NCBI RefSeq assembly: GCF_965641715.1
Contig: NZ_OZ282453.1
Length of the DNA stretch: 64,000 nt
Strand: one strand, 5' to 3'
DNA from: Escherichia coli
GTDB lineage: Bacteria > Pseudomonadota > Gammaproteobacteria > Enterobacterales > Enterobacteriaceae
Position numbers and translations under genes: made by a program. Position 1 is the first letter of the stretch. Each line of letters begins with the position of its first letter. This document shows, piece after piece, positions 18,711 to 28,478 of the stretch. The notes under the pieces are model-generated. The model ran no database searches. It saw only the letters and a program-made list of their open reading frames with translations, and was not told where the DNA came from.

Positions 18711-18902
18711 TTATTGCGCGTGAATACCTGGATCTGGCAAAAAATTGCCGCGTTTGGCGTCAGACCATGCTTCGCTACCAGAAGCAGGAATGTCGCTGTA
18801 ATCAATGTCTTCGTCGGATTTATTAACCAAAGCCATGAGTTCAGCTTCTTGCTGCACATCAAGTGTGTAGAGTGTGCCCCGTTTATGTTTAACCATGCTC
18901 AT
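18711..18902 (-). CDS. Small acidic ORF of uncertain status, possibly a truncated antitoxin-like fragment
   Basis: 63-aa ORF 39 nt downstream of the membrane-protein gene on the same strand; carries an EDIDYSDIP motif that resembles, from memory, the N-terminal segment of BrnA/DUF4415-type antitoxins; no RHH domain follows. Confidence 0.35.
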   Translation of the reverse strand: MSMVKHKRGTLYTLDVQQEAELMALVNKSDEDIDYSDIPASGSEAWSDAKRGNFLPDPGIHAQ

Positions 18903-18941
18903 TTATGACCAGAACCTTTACGATTTAATTATAAAGATGAC

Positions 18942-19910
18942 TTATTTCAGCCATCCAGGCACGTTATATTCTGAGACATTCTCAATGGAATATGCATCTC
19001 TCCTGTCAGAACCTTTCTTACACTTCAACTCATTGAACCCCCATTTACCCTCTCTATTGGAATAAAATACAGTATATTTATCAGTATTAAACCCGAAATA
19101 TCTTTCATCCGGACGTGAAATATTCAACTCTCCACATTTAACCTGACTGCGCCATTCAAAATCTATGGTGCTTTTTAAAACGTAGTACGAAATATTCTCT
19201 ACATTTTTTGAAGCAAAAACTACTAAAATAGTAGATACTATAAATGCTCCGGCAAGTATAAATAACCTATACACACTTAATTTAGTCCCCAGAGTTAAAA
19301 AAGCAAAATAGATAATAAGTTGCATCAACATGAAGAAAATCAACAAAAAAGCCATCCCTTTCCAGAAATACTCAACCCATGGTGATAGTGTGATATTTAG
19401 ATTACTCAAACTTAAAAATAAACTGGAAGAAAAACTACTTGAGAATAAATATATAATTGGTATGACAGCTAAAGTCATAGACCTAATAATCATTAATTTT
19501 TTATTATTTTTAAATTCCAACTCTAATATAATAAAAACACCTCCCAGAAAAACAAATACTGAAAAAGCACTAAAAACGTATACAGAGACACTGACTGGAA
19601 AAATATTAATTGAAAGCACAAAAAACAAAAATATAAACCATGCAATAAGTGAACACCAGGCAGCACAACTATTCAAACTGTTTTTATTACTGAACTTGAC
19701 AAAATACCCCATATATTCTGTAATGCGATTTTCTTCCACTAATGCATAAAGAAGAATACCAACAAAGCACAGAGATAAAATAATATCTTTCCACAGATAT
19801 TTATAAGGGAGAAGTATAAAACCAAGGAGTAGATAAATTAGCAGAATGACATCTAATGCCTTAGTACAAAAATATTGTTTCACTCCTTGCAAGAACCGAA
19901 CATTCTCCAT
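18942..19910 (-). CDS. Uncharacterised polytopic membrane protein (about 7 TM helices plus ~90-aa C-terminal soluble domain)
   Basis: ORF 18942..19943; ATG at 19910 preceded by GGAGAAGGA SD; very AT-rich; occupies the slot between yjiA and hsdR where K-12 carries mrr. Confidence 0.7.
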   Translation of the reverse strand: MENVRFLQGVKQYFCTKALDVILLIYLLLGFILLPYKYLWKDIILSLCFVGILLYALVEENRITEYMGYFVKFSNKNSLNSCAAWCSLIAWFIFLFFVLSINIFPVSVSVYVFSAFSVFVFLGGVFIILELEFKNNKKLMIIRSMTLAVIPIIYLFSSSFSSSLFLSLSNLNITLSPWVEYFWKGMAFLLIFFMLMQLIIYFAFLTLGTKLSVYRLFILAGAFIVSTILVVFASKNVENISYYVLKSTIDFEWRSQVKCGELNISRPDERYFGFNTDKYTVFYSNREGKWGFNELKCKKGSDRRDAYSIENVSEYNVPGWLK

Positions 19911-20050
19911 ATGAATCCTTCTCCAGCTATTGATGAAACTCAAGAATACCTTTAAAACAGTGACTTAACGCTGATAATACTCTTTGAACAGATGAATTCA
20001 TCTATTTTTCTGTGTAGAATTTGCGCATCGCATTTAGATGAGAACACCCC

Positions 20051-22483
20051 ATGGCGGAACTGAACCTAAGTAACCTGACGGAAGCAGACATCATTACCAA
20101 ATGCGTTATGCCAGCCATTCTCAATGCAGGCTGGGACAACACAACGCAAATCAGACAGGAGGTCAAACTCCGGGACGGTAAAGTCATCGTACGTGGTAAA
20201 GTTGCGGCACGCAGAACGGTAAAATCTGCTGACATCGTGCTGTACCACAAGCCAGGCATTCCCTTAGCCGTGATTGAAGCAAAAGCCAACAAACATGAAA
20301 TTGGCAAAGGGATGCAACAGGGCATTGAATATGCGCGCCTGCTGGACGTTCCTTTTGTTTTTGCCACCAATGGTGATGGCTTTATCTTCCGCGATGCCAC
20401 CGCAGCTGAAGGTGAATGCCTTGAAAAGCAAATAACGCTGGATGACTTCCCCTCCCCCGCTGAACTCTGGCAAAAATTCTGCCTCTGGAAAGGATACACA
20501 CAAGCTCAGCTTCCGGTGATTACTCAGGACTATTACGACGATGGTAGCGGTAAATCGCCTCGTTATTATCAACTTCAGGCAATCAACAAAACCATTGAAG
20601 CCGTCTCCAACGGGCAAAACCGCGTTCTGCTGGTCATGGCGACCGGAACAGGGAAAACCTATACCGCATTCCAGATCATCTGGCGCCTGTGGAAATCAAA
20701 AAATAAAAAACGCATTCTGTTCCTTGCCGATCGCAACATTCTGGTCGACCAAACCAAAAATAATGATTTCCAGCCATTTGGTACGGCAATGACCAAAGTC
20801 AGCGGACGCACCATTGATCCCGCTTATGAAATTCACCTCGCGCTCTATCAGGCTATAACTGGCCCGGAGGAAGACCAAAAAGCGTTTAAACAAGTCGCAC
20901 CAGATTTCTTCGATCTGATCGTGATCGACGAATGCCATCGCGGCAGCGCATCCGAAGACAGCGCCTGGCGAGAGATCCTTGATTATTTCAGTTCCGCCAC
21001 CCAAATTGGCTTAACCGCCACGCCAAAAGAGACGCATGAAGTCTCCAGCACGGATTACTTCGGCGATCCGGTTTACGTCTACTCGCTAAAAGAAGGGATC
21101 GAAGACGGCTTCCTCGCCCCTTATAAAGTTGTCCGTGTTGATATTGATGTTGATCTGCAAGGCTGGCGCCCAACCAAAGGGCAAACTGACTTAAACGGCG
21201 AAGTGATCGACGATCGTATCTATAACCAGAAAGATTTCGATCGCACGATGGTAATCGACGAACGCACAGAACTGGTTGCCAGAACCATTACCGACTACCT
21301 CAAGCGCACCAATCCGATGGATAAAACCATCGTCTTCTGTAACGACATCGATCATGCAGAACGTATGCGCCGCGCCCTGGTTAATCTCAACCCGGAGCAG
21401 GTGAAAAAGAACGACAAATACGTCATGAAAATCACCGGCGATGATGAAATTGGCAAAGCTCAGTTGGATAACTTCATCAACCCGAAAAAACCGTACCCGG
21501 TTATCGCGACCACTTCAGAGCTGATGACCACCGGTGTGGATGCTAAAACCTGCAAACTGGTAGTACTGGACCAGAACATCCAGTCGATGACCAAATTCAA
21601 GCAGATTATCGGTCGTGGTACACGCATCGACGAACGTTACGGCAAACTCTGGTTTACCATCCTCGACTTTAAAAAAGCCACCGAACTGTTTGCCGATGAG
21701 CGTTTCGATGGCATTCCCGAAAAAGTCATGGATACCACACCAGAGGATATCGCCGATCCAGACTCTGATTTTGAAGAGAAACTCGAAGAAATCAGCGAAC
21801 ATGTCGACGAACAGGTAACAGGCGTTGATGAACCGCCTGCGCCACCATACCAGGTTAAAGATACCGATGATGTCGGCCCACTTCCGGAAGAAGACGAGAA
21901 GAAAATCCGCAAGTTTCACGTCAACGGTGTAGCGGTGGGCGTTATTGCCCAGCGTGTTCAGTATTACGACGCCGACGGTAAACTGGTTACCGAATCCTTT
22001 AAAGATTACACTCGCAAAACACTGCTCAAAGAATATGCCTCGCTGGATGACTTTACCCGCAAGTGGCAGGACGCCGATCGCAAAGAAGCGATCATTCACG
22101 AGCTGGAGCAACAGGGGATCATCTGGGAAGTACTGGCAGAAGAAGTCGGTAAAGATCTCGACCCATTCGACATGCTTTGCCACGTAGTGTATGGTCAGCC
22201 GCCGTTAACCCGCAAAGAGCGCGCCGAGAACGTGCGCAAGCGGAACTACTTCACAAAATACTCTGAAGCAGCGCAAGCCGTGCTCGATAATCTGCTGGAT
22301 AAATACGCCGATGCGGGCGTACAGGAGATCGAAAGTATTCAGGTGCTGAAACTTAAGCCATTCGACAGCATGGGCACCTTACCGGAGATTATTAAAACCG
22401 GATTTGGCGACCGTAACGGGTATAATCAGGCGCTCAGCGAGCTGGAAAACGAAATCTACCAATTACCGCCCCGCTCTGCTTAA
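20051..22483 (+). CDS. hsdR: Type I restriction enzyme R subunit
   Basis: 810 aa; N-terminal PD-(D/E)xK-like motif (D...IEAK), SF2 helicase motif I (MATGTGKT) and motif II (DECHR). Confidence 0.9.
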
Positions 22484-22549
22484 CAACTCTCTTTTGTGCC
22501 TTCTGCAACCATCATGTTGCAGAAGGCCTTGTTTTTCATGGAATACAAC

Positions 22550-24019
22550 ATGTCTATCAGCTCAGTAATCAAATCATTACAAGATATTATGCGCAAAGAT
22601 GCCGGTGTGGACGGCGATGCGCAGCGTCTCGGTCAGCTCTCCTGGCTGCTATTTTTGAAAATCTTCGATGCCCAGGAAGAGGCGCTGGAACTGGAGCAGG
22701 ATAACTATCAATATCCGATCCCACAGCGTTATTTGTGGCGCAGTTGGGCCGCCAACGCGCAGGGCATTACCGGTGATTCCCTGCTGGAATTCGTTAATGA
22801 TGATCTGTTCCCGGCGTTGAAAAACCTCACTGCGCCTATCGATAAAAACCCACGCGGCTACGTGGTAAAGCAGGCGTTCAGCGATGCCTATAACTATATG
22901 AAAAACGGTACGCTACTGCGTCAGGTGATCAACAAGCTGAACGAAATTGACTTTACCAGCGCCAGCGAACGCCATCTGTTTGGTGATATTTACGAACAGA
23001 TCCTTAAAGATCTGCAATCTGCGGGCAATGCTGGCGAATTCTATACTCCACGCGCCGTCACTCGCTTTATGGTGGATCGCGTCGATCCGAAACTCGGCGA
23101 ATCCATTATGGACCCGGCCTGCGGTACGGGCGGTTTTCTTGCCTGCGCATTTGATCATGTAAAGAACAAATACGTGAAGAGCGTCGCCGATCATCAGACG
23201 CTGCAACAACAGATCCACGGTGTTGAGAAAAAACAGCTTCCGCACCTGCTGGCGACCACCAATATGCTGCTGCACGGCATTGAAGTACCGGTACAAATTC
23301 GTCACGACAACACCCTGAACAAACCGCTTTCCTCCTGGGATGAACAACTGGATGTCATTGTTACCAACCCGCCGTTTGGTGGCACGGAAGAAGATGGTAT
23401 TGAGAAGAACTTTCCAGCAGAGATGCAAACCCGCGAAACGGCGGATTTGTTCCTGCAACTGATTGTGGAAGTACTGGCGAAAAACGGTCGCGCGGCGGTG
23501 GTATTGCCGGATGGCACACTATTTGGCGAAGGCGTTAAAACCAAAATCAAAAAGCTACTTACCGAAGAGTGCAACCTGCATACCATCGTGCGCTTACCGA
23601 ATGGTGTGTTTAACCCCTATACCGGCATTAAAACCAACCTGTTGTTCTTTACCAAAGGTCAGCCAACCAAAGAGATTTGGTTCTATGAGCATCCGTATCC
23701 GGCGGGCGTGAAAAACTACAGCAAAACCAAGCCGATGAAGTTTGAAGAGTTTCAGGCGGAGATCGACTGGTGGGGTAACGAGGCCGATGGTTTTGCCAGC
23801 CGCGTCGAGAATGAGCAAGCGTGGAAAGTCAGCATTGATGACGTGATTGCGCGTAACTTCAATCTGGATATTAAAAACCCACATCAGGCGGAAACCGTCA
23901 GCCATGATCCGGACGAACTGTTAGCGCAGTATGCAAAGCAACAGGCGGAGATCCAGACGCTGCGTAATCAACTGCGCGATATTCTCGGCGCTGCGCTGTC
24001 TGGCAAGGAGGTTAACTGA
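22550..24019 (+). CDS. hsdM: Type I restriction-modification N6-adenine methyltransferase M subunit
   Basis: ORF 22496..24019; AdoMet motif DPACGTGGFL and catalytic NPPFGG; start is uncertain (Met at 22538 or 22550). Confidence 0.9.
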   Translation: MSISSVIKSLQDIMRKDAGVDGDAQRLGQLSWLLFLKIFDAQEEALELEQDNYQYPIPQRYLWRSWAANAQGITGDSLLEFVNDDLFPALKNLTAPIDKNPRGYVVKQAFSDAYNYMKNGTLLRQVINKLNEIDFTSASERHLFGDIYEQILKDLQSAGNAGEFYTPRAVTRFMVDRVDPKLGESIMDPACGTGGFLACAFDHVKNKYVKSVADHQTLQQQIHGVEKKQLPHLLATTNMLLHGIEVPVQIRHDNTLNKPLSSWDEQLDVIVTNPPFGGTEEDGIEKNFPAEMQTRETADLFLQLIVEVLAKNGRAAVVLPDGTLFGEGVKTKIKKLLTEECNLHTIVRLPNGVFNPYTGIKTNLLFFTKGQPTKEIWFYEHPYPAGVKNYSKTKPMKFEEFQAEIDWWGNEADGFASRVENEQAWKVSIDDVIARNFNLDIKNPHQAETVSHDPDELLAQYAKQQAEIQTLRNQLRDILGAALSGKEVN

Positions 24020-25776
24020 TGAGTGTGGAAAAGCTGATCGTTGATCATATGGAAACCTGGACCTCGGCGTTGCAAACCCGTTCCACCGCCGGGCGCGGCA
24101 GCTCCGGTAAGATTGATTTGTATGGTATTAAGAAATTGCGTGAGCTGATTCTGGAACTGGCGGTGCGCGGTAAACTGGTGCCGCAGGATCCGCATGATGA
24201 ACCGGCGTCGGAGCTGCTGAAGCGTAATGAAGAACGGAAAAAAGAATTAGCGCGCAATAATGGTATGAAAACCACAGCAAGCACTAATATCCATGGAAAT
24301 GAATATTATATCGATACCCCCGAAAAGTGGTCATGGATAAGACTTGGTAATTTAGCTAAATTCATCGATTACCGAGGAAAAACACCACATAAAAAAGAAA
24401 ATGGTATAAGGCTTATAACAGCAAAAAATATCAGAAAGGGCTATATTGATCTCAATCCAGAAGAGTTCATATCTGAAGAAGATTACATATCATGGATGAC
24501 AAGAGGCTTTCCTAAATGTGGTGATATTTTATTCACAACTGAAGCACCACTGGGGAATGCAGCGATTATTGATTTAGACGGAAAGTTCGCTCTTGCTCAA
24601 CGTTCTATCTGTTTTCAATGGCATACTCCAGAGATAAGCCCTTTTATGCTTATTCAAATCCTGGCGATCCCCTTCCAGTCACAACTAAGTGACAAATCTA
24701 CAGGCATGACCGCAACAGGAATAAAAGCGTCTAAGTTAAAAGAGATCCCTGTTATTTTACCACCTTACCAAGAACAAATACGTATTGTATCCAAAGTACA
24801 GGAGTTCATGTCCCTATGTGACCAACTGGAACAGCAATCCCTGACCAGTCTGGACGCACATCAGCAACTGGTTGAAACCCTGTTGGAAACACTTACAGAC
24901 AGCCAAAACGCCGAGGAACTGGCTGAAAACTGGGCGCGTATTAGCGAGCATTTCGACACCCTATTTACCACTGAAGCCAGCGTGGATGCGTTAAAACAGA
25001 CCATTCTGCAACTGGCCGTAATGGGTAAACTTGTGCCGCAGGATCCGAATGACGAACCAGCCTCTGAACTGCTCAAACGAATTGCGCAGGAAAAAGCTCA
25101 ACTGGTGAAAGAAGGGAAAATAAAAAAACAAAAACCGTTGCCGCCAATTAGCGATGAGGAAAAGCCGTTTGAACTGCCGGAAGGTTGGGAGTGGTGTCGA
25201 TTGGGTTCTATTTATAATTTTTTAAATGGATATGCCTTTAAAAGTGAGTGGTTTACCTCTGTCGGTTTACGTTTATTGCGGAATGCTAACATTGCTCATG
25301 GAGTTACCAATTGGAAAGATGTTGTACATATACCAAATGACATGATATCCGATTTTGAAAATTATATTTTGTCAGAAAATGATATTGTTATTTCATTAGA
25401 CAGACCAATTATTAATACCGGGTTAAAATATGCTATCATTAGCAAATCAGATTTACCCTGTTTACTGCTCCAACGAGTAGCAAAATTTAAAAATTATGCA
25501 AACACTGTGTCTAACTCCTTCTTGACAATATGGTTGCAATCTTATTTCTTCATAAATTCAATTGATCCTGGAAGAAGTAATGGAGTTCCACATATATCTA
25601 CGAAACAGTTAGAGATGACACTATTTCCTCTTCTACCGCAAAGTGAACAAGATCGTATTATTTCAAAAACGGATGAATTAATACAAACCTGTAATAAACT
25701 GAAATATATTATCAAAACCGCCAAACAAACCCAACTGCACCTTGCAGACGCACTGACTGACGCAGCGATAAACTAA
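24019..25776 (+). CDS. hsdS: Type I restriction-modification specificity subunit with two target-recognition domains
   Basis: 585 aa; start overlaps hsdM stop; two AT-rich variable regions flanked by a duplicated conserved segment (LAV(R/M)GKLVPQDP(H/N)DEPASELLKR) near 24130-24230 and 25000-25085. Confidence 0.9.
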   Translation: MSVEKLIVDHMETWTSALQTRSTAGRGSSGKIDLYGIKKLRELILELAVRGKLVPQDPHDEPASELLKRNEERKKELARNNGMKTTASTNIHGNEYYIDTPEKWSWIRLGNLAKFIDYRGKTPHKKENGIRLITAKNIRKGYIDLNPEEFISEEDYISWMTRGFPKCGDILFTTEAPLGNAAIIDLDGKFALAQRSICFQWHTPEISPFMLIQILAIPFQSQLSDKSTGMTATGIKASKLKEIPVILPPYQEQIRIVSKVQEFMSLCDQLEQQSLTSLDAHQQLVETLLETLTDSQNAEELAENWARISEHFDTLFTTEASVDALKQTILQLAVMGKLVPQDPNDEPASELLKRIAQEKAQLVKEGKIKKQKPLPPISDEEKPFELPEGWEWCRLGSIYNFLNGYAFKSEWFTSVGLRLLRNANIAHGVTNWKDVVHIPNDMISDFENYILSENDIVISLDRPIINTGLKYAIISKSDLPCLLLQRVAKFKNYANTVSNSFLTIWLQSYFFINSIDPGRSNGVPHISTKQLEMTLFPLLPQSEQDRIISKTDELIQTCNKLKYIIKTAKQTQLHLADALTDAAIN

Positions 25777-25800
25777 TTCCCTCGCCCTCAAAAAACCAAT

Positions 25801-25822
25801 AAAGCGGCTAAATAGCCGCTTT
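25801..25822. terminator. Hairpin after hsdS
   Basis: AAAGCGGCTA / TAGCCGCTTT inverted repeat preceded by an A-run and followed by TTATT. Confidence 0.55.
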
Positions 25823-25903
25823 ATTCACATCACCAAAAATTATATTTCACGCTAAACTTCATCTTATTTTCATTAATTTTTAGCTGGACTTCCCCTGTAT
25901 TTA

Positions 25904-25919
25904 CTGATGATATATCCAG
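25904..25919. promoter_or_regulatory. LexA (SOS) box in the symE promoter
   Basis: CTG-atgatatatc-CAG matches CTG-N10-CAG about 80 bp upstream of symE. Confidence 0.7.
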
Positions 25920-25925
25920 GTATTT

Positions 25926-26002
25926 AGCGCGGTGCGGATGTGCGCCAACACACCCGCACCGCTAATCACAATCCCTATTTCTAAGGAATAGTAATCATGA
26001 CT
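25926..26002 (-). ncRNA. symR: Antisense sRNA SymR, placed by homology expectation only
   Basis: SymR is known to be encoded antisense to the symE 5' end; an imperfect 14-bp hairpin (GCGGTGCGGATGTG ... CACACCCGCACCGC) lies at 25929-25962; exact ends not determinable from sequence. Confidence 0.35.
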
Positions 26003-26338
26003 GACACGCATTCTATTGCACAACCGTTCGAAGCAGAAGTCTCCCCGGCAAATAACCGTCAATTAACCGTGAGTTATGCGAGCCGCTACCCGGATTACAG
26101 CCGTATTCCCGCCATCACCCTGAAAGGTCAGTGGCTGGAAGCCGCCGGTTTTGCCACTGGCACGGCGGTAGATGTCAAAGTGATGGAAGGCTGTATTGTC
26201 CTCACCGCCCAACCCGCCGCCGCCGAAGAGAGCGAACTGATGCAGTCACTACGCCAGGTGTGCAAACTGTCGGCGCGTAAACAAAAGCAGGTGCGGGAAT
26301 TTATTGGGGTGATTGCGGGTAAACAGAAAGTCGCCTGA
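25997..26338 (+). CDS. symE: SOS-induced toxin SymE (type I TA toxin, AbrB-fold)
   Basis: 113-aa [37 protein letters not shown]... recognised as SymE; downstream of hsdS as in K-12. Confidence 0.9.
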
Positions 26339-26345
26339 TACATTG

Positions 26346-26371
26346 ACCCGGTAGCGCCAGTGCTACCGGGT
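26346..26371. terminator. Hairpin between convergent symE and the GmrSD-like gene
   Basis: ACCCGGTAGC-gccagt-GCTACCGGGT followed by ATTATT. Confidence 0.65.
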
Positions 26372-26384
26372 ATTATTCGCCGCG

Positions 26385-28478
26385 TTATACCAAGGCGCTC
26401 TCCATCTGTTTTTCAAATGCCTGACGAATTAATCCCATAATGTAAGGAAGTTGTGCGAGGTCACTGAAACCAATTTCCACATCACCATTACCCCAGCGCC
26501 CAACATTTGTCACATCTTTGGCAATACCTTTCGGATCGACCAGTTCATGAAACTGCATATTAAGCGACAATCGCAGTCGGCTTTTTTGCGGCACAACATC
26601 AACAAAATTCGTTTCCGCTTTAAACGCAATATATAGCTTCAATACTTCCTGCGTGATCCCTGCGTCCAGGCGCATAACTTCATCGCGAAGATGATCGAAT
26701 AACACCCGGCTATGCGAACCATCAGCAAGAAAAGGATAATCACTCAGGCTGTAACTGGTTTTGTTTTCAGGCTGTCCCCGATAAACAGCTAAAACCTCTT
26801 CAGGAAGAGAAGGCGCTTGCCAGACCTGAACCGCGAGATCGGCCAGACGATCGGCTCGGGCGTGAATGGCGGCTTCATCCCATTTTTCGCACTGTCCAAG
26901 ACCGATATTCAAATAGAGCGGGCTATGCTTAAAGCCGTCTTCAATATCGCGTTTTTCTGCGAAAGGTCTGTCACTGTAACGGGAGTTATAGCGCGTTAAA
27001 GTGAGATTCCCCAACGTATGCAACAGTTCTTTATGAATACGCTGCCAGTCGCTTCCCAGCTCTTCGCGCCATTTAGCCGACAAATTTTCGTTCTGCGGCA
27101 TAATATGTTCAATCGTAAACTCTTCCACGCGCTCTCTGCGTTTATCGTTTTCCAGTCGTCGTAACCAGTAGCTGCGACTACGGAAGTTATAGAGATCGCG
27201 AACTTTTAATTCCCGTTTAAATTCATCATCGTTGGGGAAACGACGATATGAAGGTAGATTCAAAAAATGTACCTGAATACTTTCCAGATAATTTTCTTTA
27301 TTAATAACTTTATAAAAAGTGGCAAATGTCTTGTTCAAAGAATTTGTCGGAATTGCACATACTGCACGGCGGAAAACATAAGATTCAATTAAACGAATTA
27401 TGCTCAGGAAATCTTCGTGAGACAAAACGCCATTTTTATAGTCATGATAAAGCGCCAGTAAGAAAGGATACACCACATCGACCTTTAACTCGCGCAAATC
27501 CTGAAAAGCCGTAGCAAGCAATTTGTCACTTTCTTTTCCCAATGCCATTGCACAGTAATACTCCGCGTAGATATGAATATCTTCAACCAGCCGATCTACG
27601 CCTTTTTCAGCAACACTCTGGCTGCGGGCATGGAGTTTAAATGCCTCATAGACTTCATCTGTCCGAGGGATCTCCCCCGTTTTTACCGTCAGATAATGAC
27701 GCATAAAACTGTCAAAATATTCGCTGTAACCTTGCTGACCAAAGGCGACTTCCATTGGACGCCAGTGATCTTCATACAACCGGGTTTGATGCTCTGGTTC
27801 GAGGCCCATCAGAATAAAATTGCGCACCAGATCGGCCTGACTTAACGCCTTACCGGTGGAGTTCATACTTTCAAAAATCAGTTGCGGATTATCCTGACCA
27901 CGATTAAGCGCCACATCGACAATTAATAACTTTGCTAACCCACGACATAAGGGGATCAAGTCATCACCGAGTTTGGCAATTTGTTCATCAAAGAAAGTAA
28001 AGTTTTCCATTATTCGATGGGAATAGTTTTCTGGCATTGGTCTTTGTTTTATTAACGCCAGTAAACTGTCTTTATCAGTCTCGGTCAGCAGTAATTTAAA
28101 ACCTTTCTCGCCGGACTCATAAGGATTGAGCAAATAATAATTACGCAATTTCATTGCCGAAAAGCCATCAAAAACTTCGTCTTCGCCAAGATGGCGCGAT
28201 AAAGCCTCAATCAGCAACATTGCGGTCGTCAGCCGCTGCTGACCATCAATGACCAGCAACGGAGAAATACCAGAAACCTGATACAATCCCTGCTCTATAT
28301 AAACAACCGAACCGATAAAATGCGCTGATATATCGTCACGCTTTCCTGCACGAATGATGTCGTCCCAAAGTTGCCGACATTGTTGCCCGGTCCATGAATA
28401 AGTCCGTTGATAAATGGGAATAACAAACTGCTGCGAACGTTTTAAAAAATCGAGTAGGCGAGCTTCTGTAGCTTTCAT
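26385..28478 (-). CDS. Single-chain DUF262/DUF1524 protein, GmrSD-family type IV restriction endonuclease candidate
   Basis: 697 aa; N-terminal DGQQR motif (DUF262 / ParB-like NTPase); C-terminal His-Me finger-like EHIMPQ motif (DUF1524); sits where K-12 carries yjiT-yjiV-mcrCB. Confidence 0.8.
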   Translation of the reverse strand: MKATEARLLDFLKRSQQFVIPIYQRTYSWTGQQCRQLWDDIIRAGKRDDISAHFIGSVVYIEQGLYQVSGISPLLVIDGQQRLTTAMLLIEALSRHLGEDEVFDGFSAMKLRNYYLLNPYESGEKGFKLLLTETDKDSLLALIKQRPMPENYSHRIMENFTFFDEQIAKLGDDLIPLCRGLAKLLIVDVALNRGQDNPQLIFESMNSTGKALSQADLVRNFILMGLEPEHQTRLYEDHWRPMEVAFGQQGYSEYFDSFMRHYLTVKTGEIPRTDEVYEAFKLHARSQSVAEKGVDRLVEDIHIYAEYYCAMALGKESDKLLATAFQDLRELKVDVVYPFLLALYHDYKNGVLSHEDFLSIIRLIESYVFRRAVCAIPTNSLNKTFATFYKVINKENYLESIQVHFLNLPSYRRFPNDDEFKRELKVRDLYNFRSRSYWLRRLENDKRRERVEEFTIEHIMPQNENLSAKWREELGSDWQRIHKELLHTLGNLTLTRYNSRYSDRPFAEKRDIEDGFKHSPLYLNIGLGQCEKWDEAAIHARADRLADLAVQVWQAPSLPEEVLAVYRGQPENKTSYSLSDYPFLADGSHSRVLFDHLRDEVMRLDAGITQEVLKLYIAFKAETNFVDVVPQKSRLRLSLNMQFHELVDPKGIAKDVTNVGRWGNGDVEIGFSDLAQLPYIMGLIRQAFEKQMESALV

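Follow-up and report, generated by a model that had tools for sequence, protein, structure and literature searches.

A symE/symR locus orthologous to that of Escherichia coli K-12, with a predicted LexA operator and SymR antisense RNA, between type IB hsdRMS and GmrSD-type restriction genes

In E. coli K-12, symE is repressed by LexA and induced by DNA damage (PMC1891008); LexA binding and damage induction at yjiW/symE are credited to Fernandez de Henestrosa 2000, as cited in PMC1891008. The E. coli DNA analysed here (64,000 nt, hereafter the window) carries a symE gene beside a different set of restriction genes, which raises the question of whether the gene has kept the LexA operator and the antisense RNA, SymR, of the K-12 locus. 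We combined homology to K-12, Rfam and Pfam matches, RNA folding and a comparison of 42 enterobacterial copies. Our assessment is that the locus is very probably a complete orthologue of the K-12 symE/symR module, and that it can be expected to work as in K-12. At the level of the sequence, every element proved orthologous, the RNA structure showed covariation, and the operator was conserved in its position. The features are collected in Table 1.

Table 1. Features of the symE/symR locus and its borders (window coordinates; HI, heterology index)
Feature	Coordinates	Strand	Basis
Terminator-like hairpin AATAAAGCGGCTAAATAGCCGCTTTATT after hsdS	25798..25825		12-bp stem, T-run on minus strand
symE promoter, putative -35-like hexamer TGGACT	25885..25890	+	conservation
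LexA (SOS) box TACTGATGATATATCCAGGT, predicted	25902..25921		K-12 homology, HI 8.7, conservation
SymR antisense RNA, 77 nt, predicted	25926..26002	-	Rfam RF01809, K-12 symR alignment
SymR 3' stem-loop, 15 bp, loop UUGG	25929..25962	-	fold; the hairpin first seen on the + strand
SymR 5' stem-loop with anti-Shine-Dalgarno (UUCCUU) and anti-AUG (CAU)	25964..26002	-	Rfam consensus structure, fold
symE Shine-Dalgarno region AAGGAA, covered by SymR	25983..25988	+	sequence; 9 nt before ATG
symE, 113 aa, intact	25997..26338	+	ORF, Pfam, K-12 identity
symR -10 hexamer TAGAAT	26010..26015	-	in symE codons 5-7; K-12 identity
symR putative -35-like hexamer TTCTGC, 17-nt spacer	26033..26038	-	conservation
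10-bp hairpin between symE and the convergent GmrSD gene, putatively terminator-like	26346..26371		-20.2 kcal/mol, z -3.0

The product of symE matches the Pfam family SymE_toxin (PF08845; E 1.4e-21, 76.7 bits against a cut-off of 29) and is identical to K-12 SymE at 107 of 113 residues (95%). With an AbrB/MazE-like fold, a length of about 110 residues and an intact reading frame, it is a member of the SymE family. SymE was first described as an RNase-like toxin. The current K-12 record names it 'nucleoid-associated protein SymE', and the summary of Thompson et al. 2022 in PMC11894785 describes it as being without RNase activity, binding DNA non-specifically and condensing the nucleoid. Since the RNase-toxin model has been challenged in this way, 'toxin' is best read as 'harmful when over-made'.

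The Rfam scan of the whole window gave one match only, RF01809 (symR), running from 26002 to 25926 on the minus strand, covering model positions 1-77 and scoring 93.1 bits against a threshold of 61. Alignment to K-12 symR, which the initial annotation had proposed as a check, places the annotated K-12 SymR (b4625) on the same 77 nt with 68 identical positions, so that the 5' region of symE is the SymR site, as had been expected. In the K-12 MG1655 record, symR is described as 'small regulatory RNA antitoxin SymR' and overlaps the symE 5' end. The initial annotation had held that the ends of SymR could not be fixed from sequence; they are indeed predictions for this strain, but K-12 homology, the Rfam model and a conserved -10 hexamer upstream of 26002 do place both. 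The predicted 5' end lies 3 nt past the symE ATG (25997-25999), which pairs with SymR nt 4-6, and the 3' end falls at 25926. The RNA is perfectly complementary to nearly the whole symE leader, Shine-Dalgarno region and AUG included, and this cis-antisense position over leader, Shine-Dalgarno region and start codon is that of the symR family. It folds into two hairpins (MFE -41.4 kcal/mol, z -7.2, compared with -37.8 kcal/mol for K-12 SymR), the 3' stem having 15 contiguous pairs, two of them G.U. Nine substitutions separate it from K-12 SymR, eight in the 5' hairpin and loop and one (A44G) in the 3' stem, where the A.C mismatch of K-12 becomes a G-C pair. Because SymR is encoded in cis, complementarity to the mRNA is kept automatically despite these substitutions.

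For a broader comparison, a degenerate pattern derived from the SymR 5' hairpin was used to retrieve 38 loci from species-representative genomes of about 20 enterobacterial genera; together with the window and three further E. coli loci these form a set of 42 copies. The genera include Citrobacter, Raoultella, Klebsiella, Kluyvera, Leclercia, Lelliottia, Kosakonia, Pantoea, Enterobacter and Pseudocitrobacter, and Escherichia whittamii is also represented. All 17 loci searched with Rfam exceeded the symR threshold (74-94 bits). An ATG stands in the register of SymR nt 4-6 in 42/42 copies and is followed in most by an intact open reading frame of 95-115 codons. Two of the loci (L025 and L041) lie on contigs of metagenome-assembled genomes labelled "Bacillota bacterium" and carry E. 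coli-like hsd, symER and GmrSD genes with 93-100% protein identity; the contigs are most likely mis-binned enterobacterial DNA.

The symR promoter was located through the same comparison. A generic sigma-70 promoter scan called neither the symE nor the symR promoter, and the promoter elements were therefore placed through homology and conservation. The symR -10 (26015-26010) ends 7 nt ahead of the predicted +1 and belongs to a segment within the symE codons (26003-26058) that is 100% identical to K-12. Of the 42 copies, 24 have TAGAAT and 17 have TACAAT at this hexamer (41/42 together), and both forms are good -10 hexamers though SymE residues 5-6 switch between His-Ser and Asp-Cys. The position of the putative -35 reads TTCTGG or TTCTGC in 38/42 copies, a weak match to TTGACA whose conservation may also be due to the SymE codons. 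By homology, then, the predicted symR promoter lies inside the symE coding sequence.

Directly after the SymR 3' hairpin, AAAUA is found in 42/42 copies and a U tract in none, thus suggesting that the 3' end of the 77-nt SymR does not arise from a canonical intrinsic terminator. The A-rich tail past the hairpin (25900-25926) is complementary to the stretch in which symE transcription is expected to begin. These features bear on how SymR acts. SymR is lost from K-12 when the symR -10 carries two point mutations, and symE mRNA then rises about 3-fold and SymE protein by more than 7-fold; SymR itself outnumbers symE mRNA by about 10:1 and is very stable (PMC1891008). One could propose that SymR represses mainly through decay of symE mRNA, or that symR transcription interferes with the symE promoter 10-120 nt downstream: the missing U tract makes read-through and trimming conceivable, symR transcription would meet no terminator-like site before 25825-25798, and the mRNA does rise in the K-12 -10 mutant. 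But the effect of that mutant on the protein exceeds its effect on the mRNA, SymR supplied in trans also represses in K-12 (PMC1891008, Fig. 2B legend), and loss of RNase III has no effect on SymR control, which points to a translational block (PMC4147584). We therefore regard mRNA decay or promoter interference as the main route of repression as unlikely, and favour inhibition of symE translation by SymR.

Selection on the SymR fold itself is apparent in its 3' helix. Among 40 distinct sequences, the Rfam-like SymR structure pairs in 92.8% of cells, and the 3' helix in 97.3%, with compensatory changes at 9 of its 15 pairs. In 500 shuffles the covariation score never came up to that observed for this helix, and every slid register was far worse. 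Since the 3' helix lies outside the search pattern save for its first three bases, this is independent evidence. Invariance of the 5' helix was discounted as evidence, most of its columns being fixed by the search pattern.

The same stem had been noticed at first on the plus strand, as an imperfect hairpin with a 14-bp stem; this description fits the 13 Watson-Crick pairs and A.C interruption at 25929-25962, although the hairpin ends 35 nt ahead of the ATG and not just before the start codon, as had been stated. It might accordingly be viewed as a cis-acting leader structure of symE, an attenuator or stabiliser acting on the sense strand. The plus strand does have a good fold of its own (-32.6 kcal/mol, z -3.6), the Shine-Dalgarno region, partly in a stem, and the AUG belong to another, smaller hairpin at 25966-26000, and any antisense fold is necessarily mirrored in the mRNA, so that both could matter. 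Yet the 3' helix pairs in 97.3% of cells when read as SymR, and reading it in the sense direction turns 90 G.U cells into A.C mismatches and so lowers pairing to 84.3%. Of the 40 sequences, 39 give a more stable hairpin on the SymR strand. Together with the full-length Rfam match and the documented RNA in K-12, this makes a dedicated leader structure most unlikely. Judged by its pairing on the two strands, the hairpin is the mirror image of the SymR 3' stem-loop.

The second regulatory element is the LexA box. Its core CTG-N10-CAG, CTGATGATATATCCAG, occupies 25904-25919; the CTG begins 93 nt and the CAG ends 77 nt ahead of the symE ATG, for which the earlier 'about 80 bp upstream' was a fair description. 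Over 16 positions it is identical to the K-12 symE box at 15, the single difference being CCAG here for ACAG in K-12. Sites were scored by heterology index with a matrix built from 20 K-12 LexA boxes, symE excluded; absolute values are approximate. On this scale the box (HI 8.7) is the best site in the 64-kb window, and 6.8 is obtained for the K-12 symE box in its best orientation, compared with a published value of 7.9 (PMC11228462). The C for A thus raises the index from 6.8 to 8.7, and LexA binding could be somewhat weaker here. Shuffling yields an equally good site in 0.1% of trials for the 220-nt intergenic region and in 14% for the whole window. The score is therefore only suggestive, and the strongest support comes from homology, position and conservation.

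The bare CTG-N10-CAG count was rejected as a diagnostic in favour of the HI scan, the window holding 24 copies against 12 expected from dinucleotide shuffles (none of 100 shuffles reached 24). This excess probably reflects codon and oligonucleotide bias and not LexA sites, as only 1 of the 24 scores well. The second-best LexA-like 20-mer, TACTGTATTTTATTCCAATA at 19055-19074 (HI 9.15, with CAA for CAG), lies within a 333-aa ORF and is probably a chance occurrence. A canonical LexA half-site, CTGTAT, is also present at 25895-25900, 9 nt upstream of the box, where K-12 reads CCCATAT; it has no CAG partner at the right spacing and is probably not a second operator.

Across the comparative set, CTG-N10-CAG is found at a fixed place in 38/42 copies, with the CTG 93-99 nt ahead of the ATG. 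The four exceptions comprise one contig end, one truncated symE and two TTG half-sites. The ten inner bases fall into distinct classes (e.g., CTGATGATATATACAG and CTGGTTAGATTTACAG), while CTG and CAG stay. Raoultella planticola (L029 and L030, on the same contig) and Candidatus Pantoea gossypiicola (L035 and L036) each have two symER copies, and in both species the LexA boxes of the two copies differ in sequence class. With at most one base changed, TGGACT stands 12-13 nt upstream of the box CTG in 40/42 copies, the distance here being 13 nt. Given such a distance and a normal spacer of 16-18 nt, the symE -10 must fall inside the LexA box, where several overlapping weak hexamers are found and a single unambiguous -10 was not identified. 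A CTG-N10-CAG operator near the consensus TACTGTATATATATACAGTA thus appears to lie over the predicted promoter, as expected for a member of the LexA regulon, and its K-12 homologue has been described as a LexA site that overlaps the symE promoter (PMC1891008, PMC3874152). The proposed LexA control of symE is well in line with this. That CTG-N10-CAG is here a chance motif at a locus free of LexA control is exceedingly improbable, despite the 24 bare copies, the 14% of whole-window shuffles that score as well and the one base changed from K-12, because the site is positionally homologous to the K-12 operator, keeps CTG and CAG in about 20 genera while its inner bases change, has a chance probability of about 0.001 in the intergenic region, and carries a CCAG that also occurs in 7 of the 20 boxes of the reference list. 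Comparison of the copies indicates clear selection on both the operator position and the SymR 3' helix across enterobacterial genera.

If the locus is regulated as in K-12, LexA would bind 25902-25921 over the symE -10 region, and this overlap would keep symE off until DNA damage triggers LexA cleavage. A constitutive promoter in the symE codons (-10 at 26015→26010) would supply the stable 77-nt SymR, with the ends given above. In excess over symE mRNA, SymR would pair with it, thereby blocking ribosome loading and modestly lowering the mRNA. SymE protein would be made only after strong, sustained SOS induction, and Lon would then limit its amount. In K-12, Lon degrades SymE and the three controls are additive (PMC1891008). 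By RNA-seq, symE expression was LexA-dependent, and clear symE induction was not seen in RNA-seq with AZT (PMC11228462).

The restriction genes around symE do differ from those of K-12, as the initial annotation had noted. Upstream lies an EcoAI-family (type IB) hsdRMS (20051-25776; hsdS, 24019-25776), and downstream, in convergent orientation, a GmrSD-type gene (26385-28478, minus strand), whereas K-12 has hsdRMS (EcoKI) and mcrBC. The GmrSD-type gene, a type IV restriction gene, is a single intact ORF of 697 aa with the domains GmrSD_N, GmrSD_C and DUF5655, its best PADLOC match being 'Orf5' (E 1.6e-222); in the closest complete E. coli genomes inspected (214-4 and 06-00048) it is annotated as a 1164-bp CDS and a pseudogene fragment. 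Between the hsdS cassette and the symE promoter stands the hairpin AATAAAGCGGCTAAATAGCCGCTTTATT, in a stretch that has no K-12 homology and is part of the variable cassette. UAUUAUU comes directly after the hairpin between symE and the GmrSD-type gene; this hairpin was not among the calls of the terminator scan.

This arrangement is a common alternative and not unusual. A 621-nt query matches 2,872 of 5,426 complete E. coli genomes, with at least 80% query coverage and the same downstream junction in 1,311 of the 5,426. The latter class includes O157:H7 strains, and a GmrSD gene is annotated in every row sampled from it. E. coli 214-4 and O157:H7 strains share the same order of hsdRMS (EcoAI family), symE, convergent GmrSD gene and yjiS, and the query is 94-98.6% identical to symER alleles of such GmrSD-neighbour lineages. 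Among complete RefSeq E. coli genomes none is more than 98.6% identical over the 621 nt, and a 60-nt promoter segment is identical in 17 complete genomes. The window is 98-99% identical to the nearest complete E. coli genomes, which is ordinary within-species divergence. HsdS is only about 49% identical to that of strain 214-4, so that the two differ in specificity.

K-12-type genomes match query positions 87-555 only, thus delimiting a conserved symER island of about 470 bp (~25866-26334), and in the alignment K-12 homology begins at ~25866-25877. By this comparison, the sequence outside ~25866-26334 is made up of variable cassettes. Those on the two sides of symER assort independently, as illustrated by contig L041, which combines an IA-like hsdM with GmrSD. 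Cassette variation is said to have been treated by Sibley and Raleigh in 2004. In other genera, hsd genes lie directly upstream of symE in 11 of 27 informative loci, with hsdS of type IA or IB. The association of symE genes with restriction-modification systems was noted earlier by Kawano et al. Two Pantoea loci (L017, 2038-2175; L035, 7552-7671) retain, directly upstream of symE, only a C-terminal piece of HsdS (40-46 aa, with 80-90% identity to the K-12 protein), as though the hsd cassette had been deleted and symER had stayed in place. Between yjiA and hsdR, the window has an AT-rich slot (18711-19943, minus strand) with two ORFs of 333 aa (many hydrophobic segments) and 63 aa, neither with a Pfam or PADLOC match. 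The 63-aa ORF is annotated as 'antitoxin' in strain 06-00048. In strain 214-4 the slot is occupied by a DUF262 gene, and it thus looks like a third variable cassette.

The feature as such is ordinary: the locus, its LexA box, the antisense RNA and the association with restriction-modification genes were already described between 2000 and 2007, SymR has its own Rfam family, and the discovery value is small. The practical use is in annotation, which can show SymR on the minus strand (26002-25926) along with the symE promoter and operator, and assign the hairpin to the antisense RNA and not to a leader structure. Two minor points come from the comparative set, namely selection on the operator position and 3' helix, and a SymR 3' end without a U tract. 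SymE has been reported to be SOS-induced and to coat DNA non-specifically, so that a role in restriction alleviation is conceivable, in which SymE might shield the chromosome from the neighbouring restriction enzymes when repair synthesis leaves unmodified sites. We consider this idea very doubtful; if true, symER would not simply be carried along between two restriction cassettes that are exchanged independently.

Among known systems, K-12 symE (b4347; PF08845) and symR (b4625, RyjC; RF01809) match the locus element for element, both loci lying downstream of hsdS. K-12 SymR shares the two-hairpin fold, and the Shine-Dalgarno region reads AAGGAA here and GGAGAA in K-12. The tisB/istR-1 and dinQ/agrB systems are similar in that a LexA-repressed gene, harmful if over-expressed, has its translation checked by a constitutive small RNA (PMC4147584). 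The TisB and DinQ toxins are small membrane peptides, however, and their small RNAs are encoded divergently or adjacently and pair to a limited extent, whereas SymE is a 113-aa protein with an AbrB/MazE fold and SymR a true cis-antisense RNA over leader and start codon. In hok/sok, likewise, translation is blocked by an antisense RNA whose promoter lies within the 5' end of the toxin transcript or close to it (PMC3874152). But Sok is unstable and acts via translational coupling to mok and RNase III, in contrast to SymR, which is very stable, present in about 10-fold excess and independent of RNase III.
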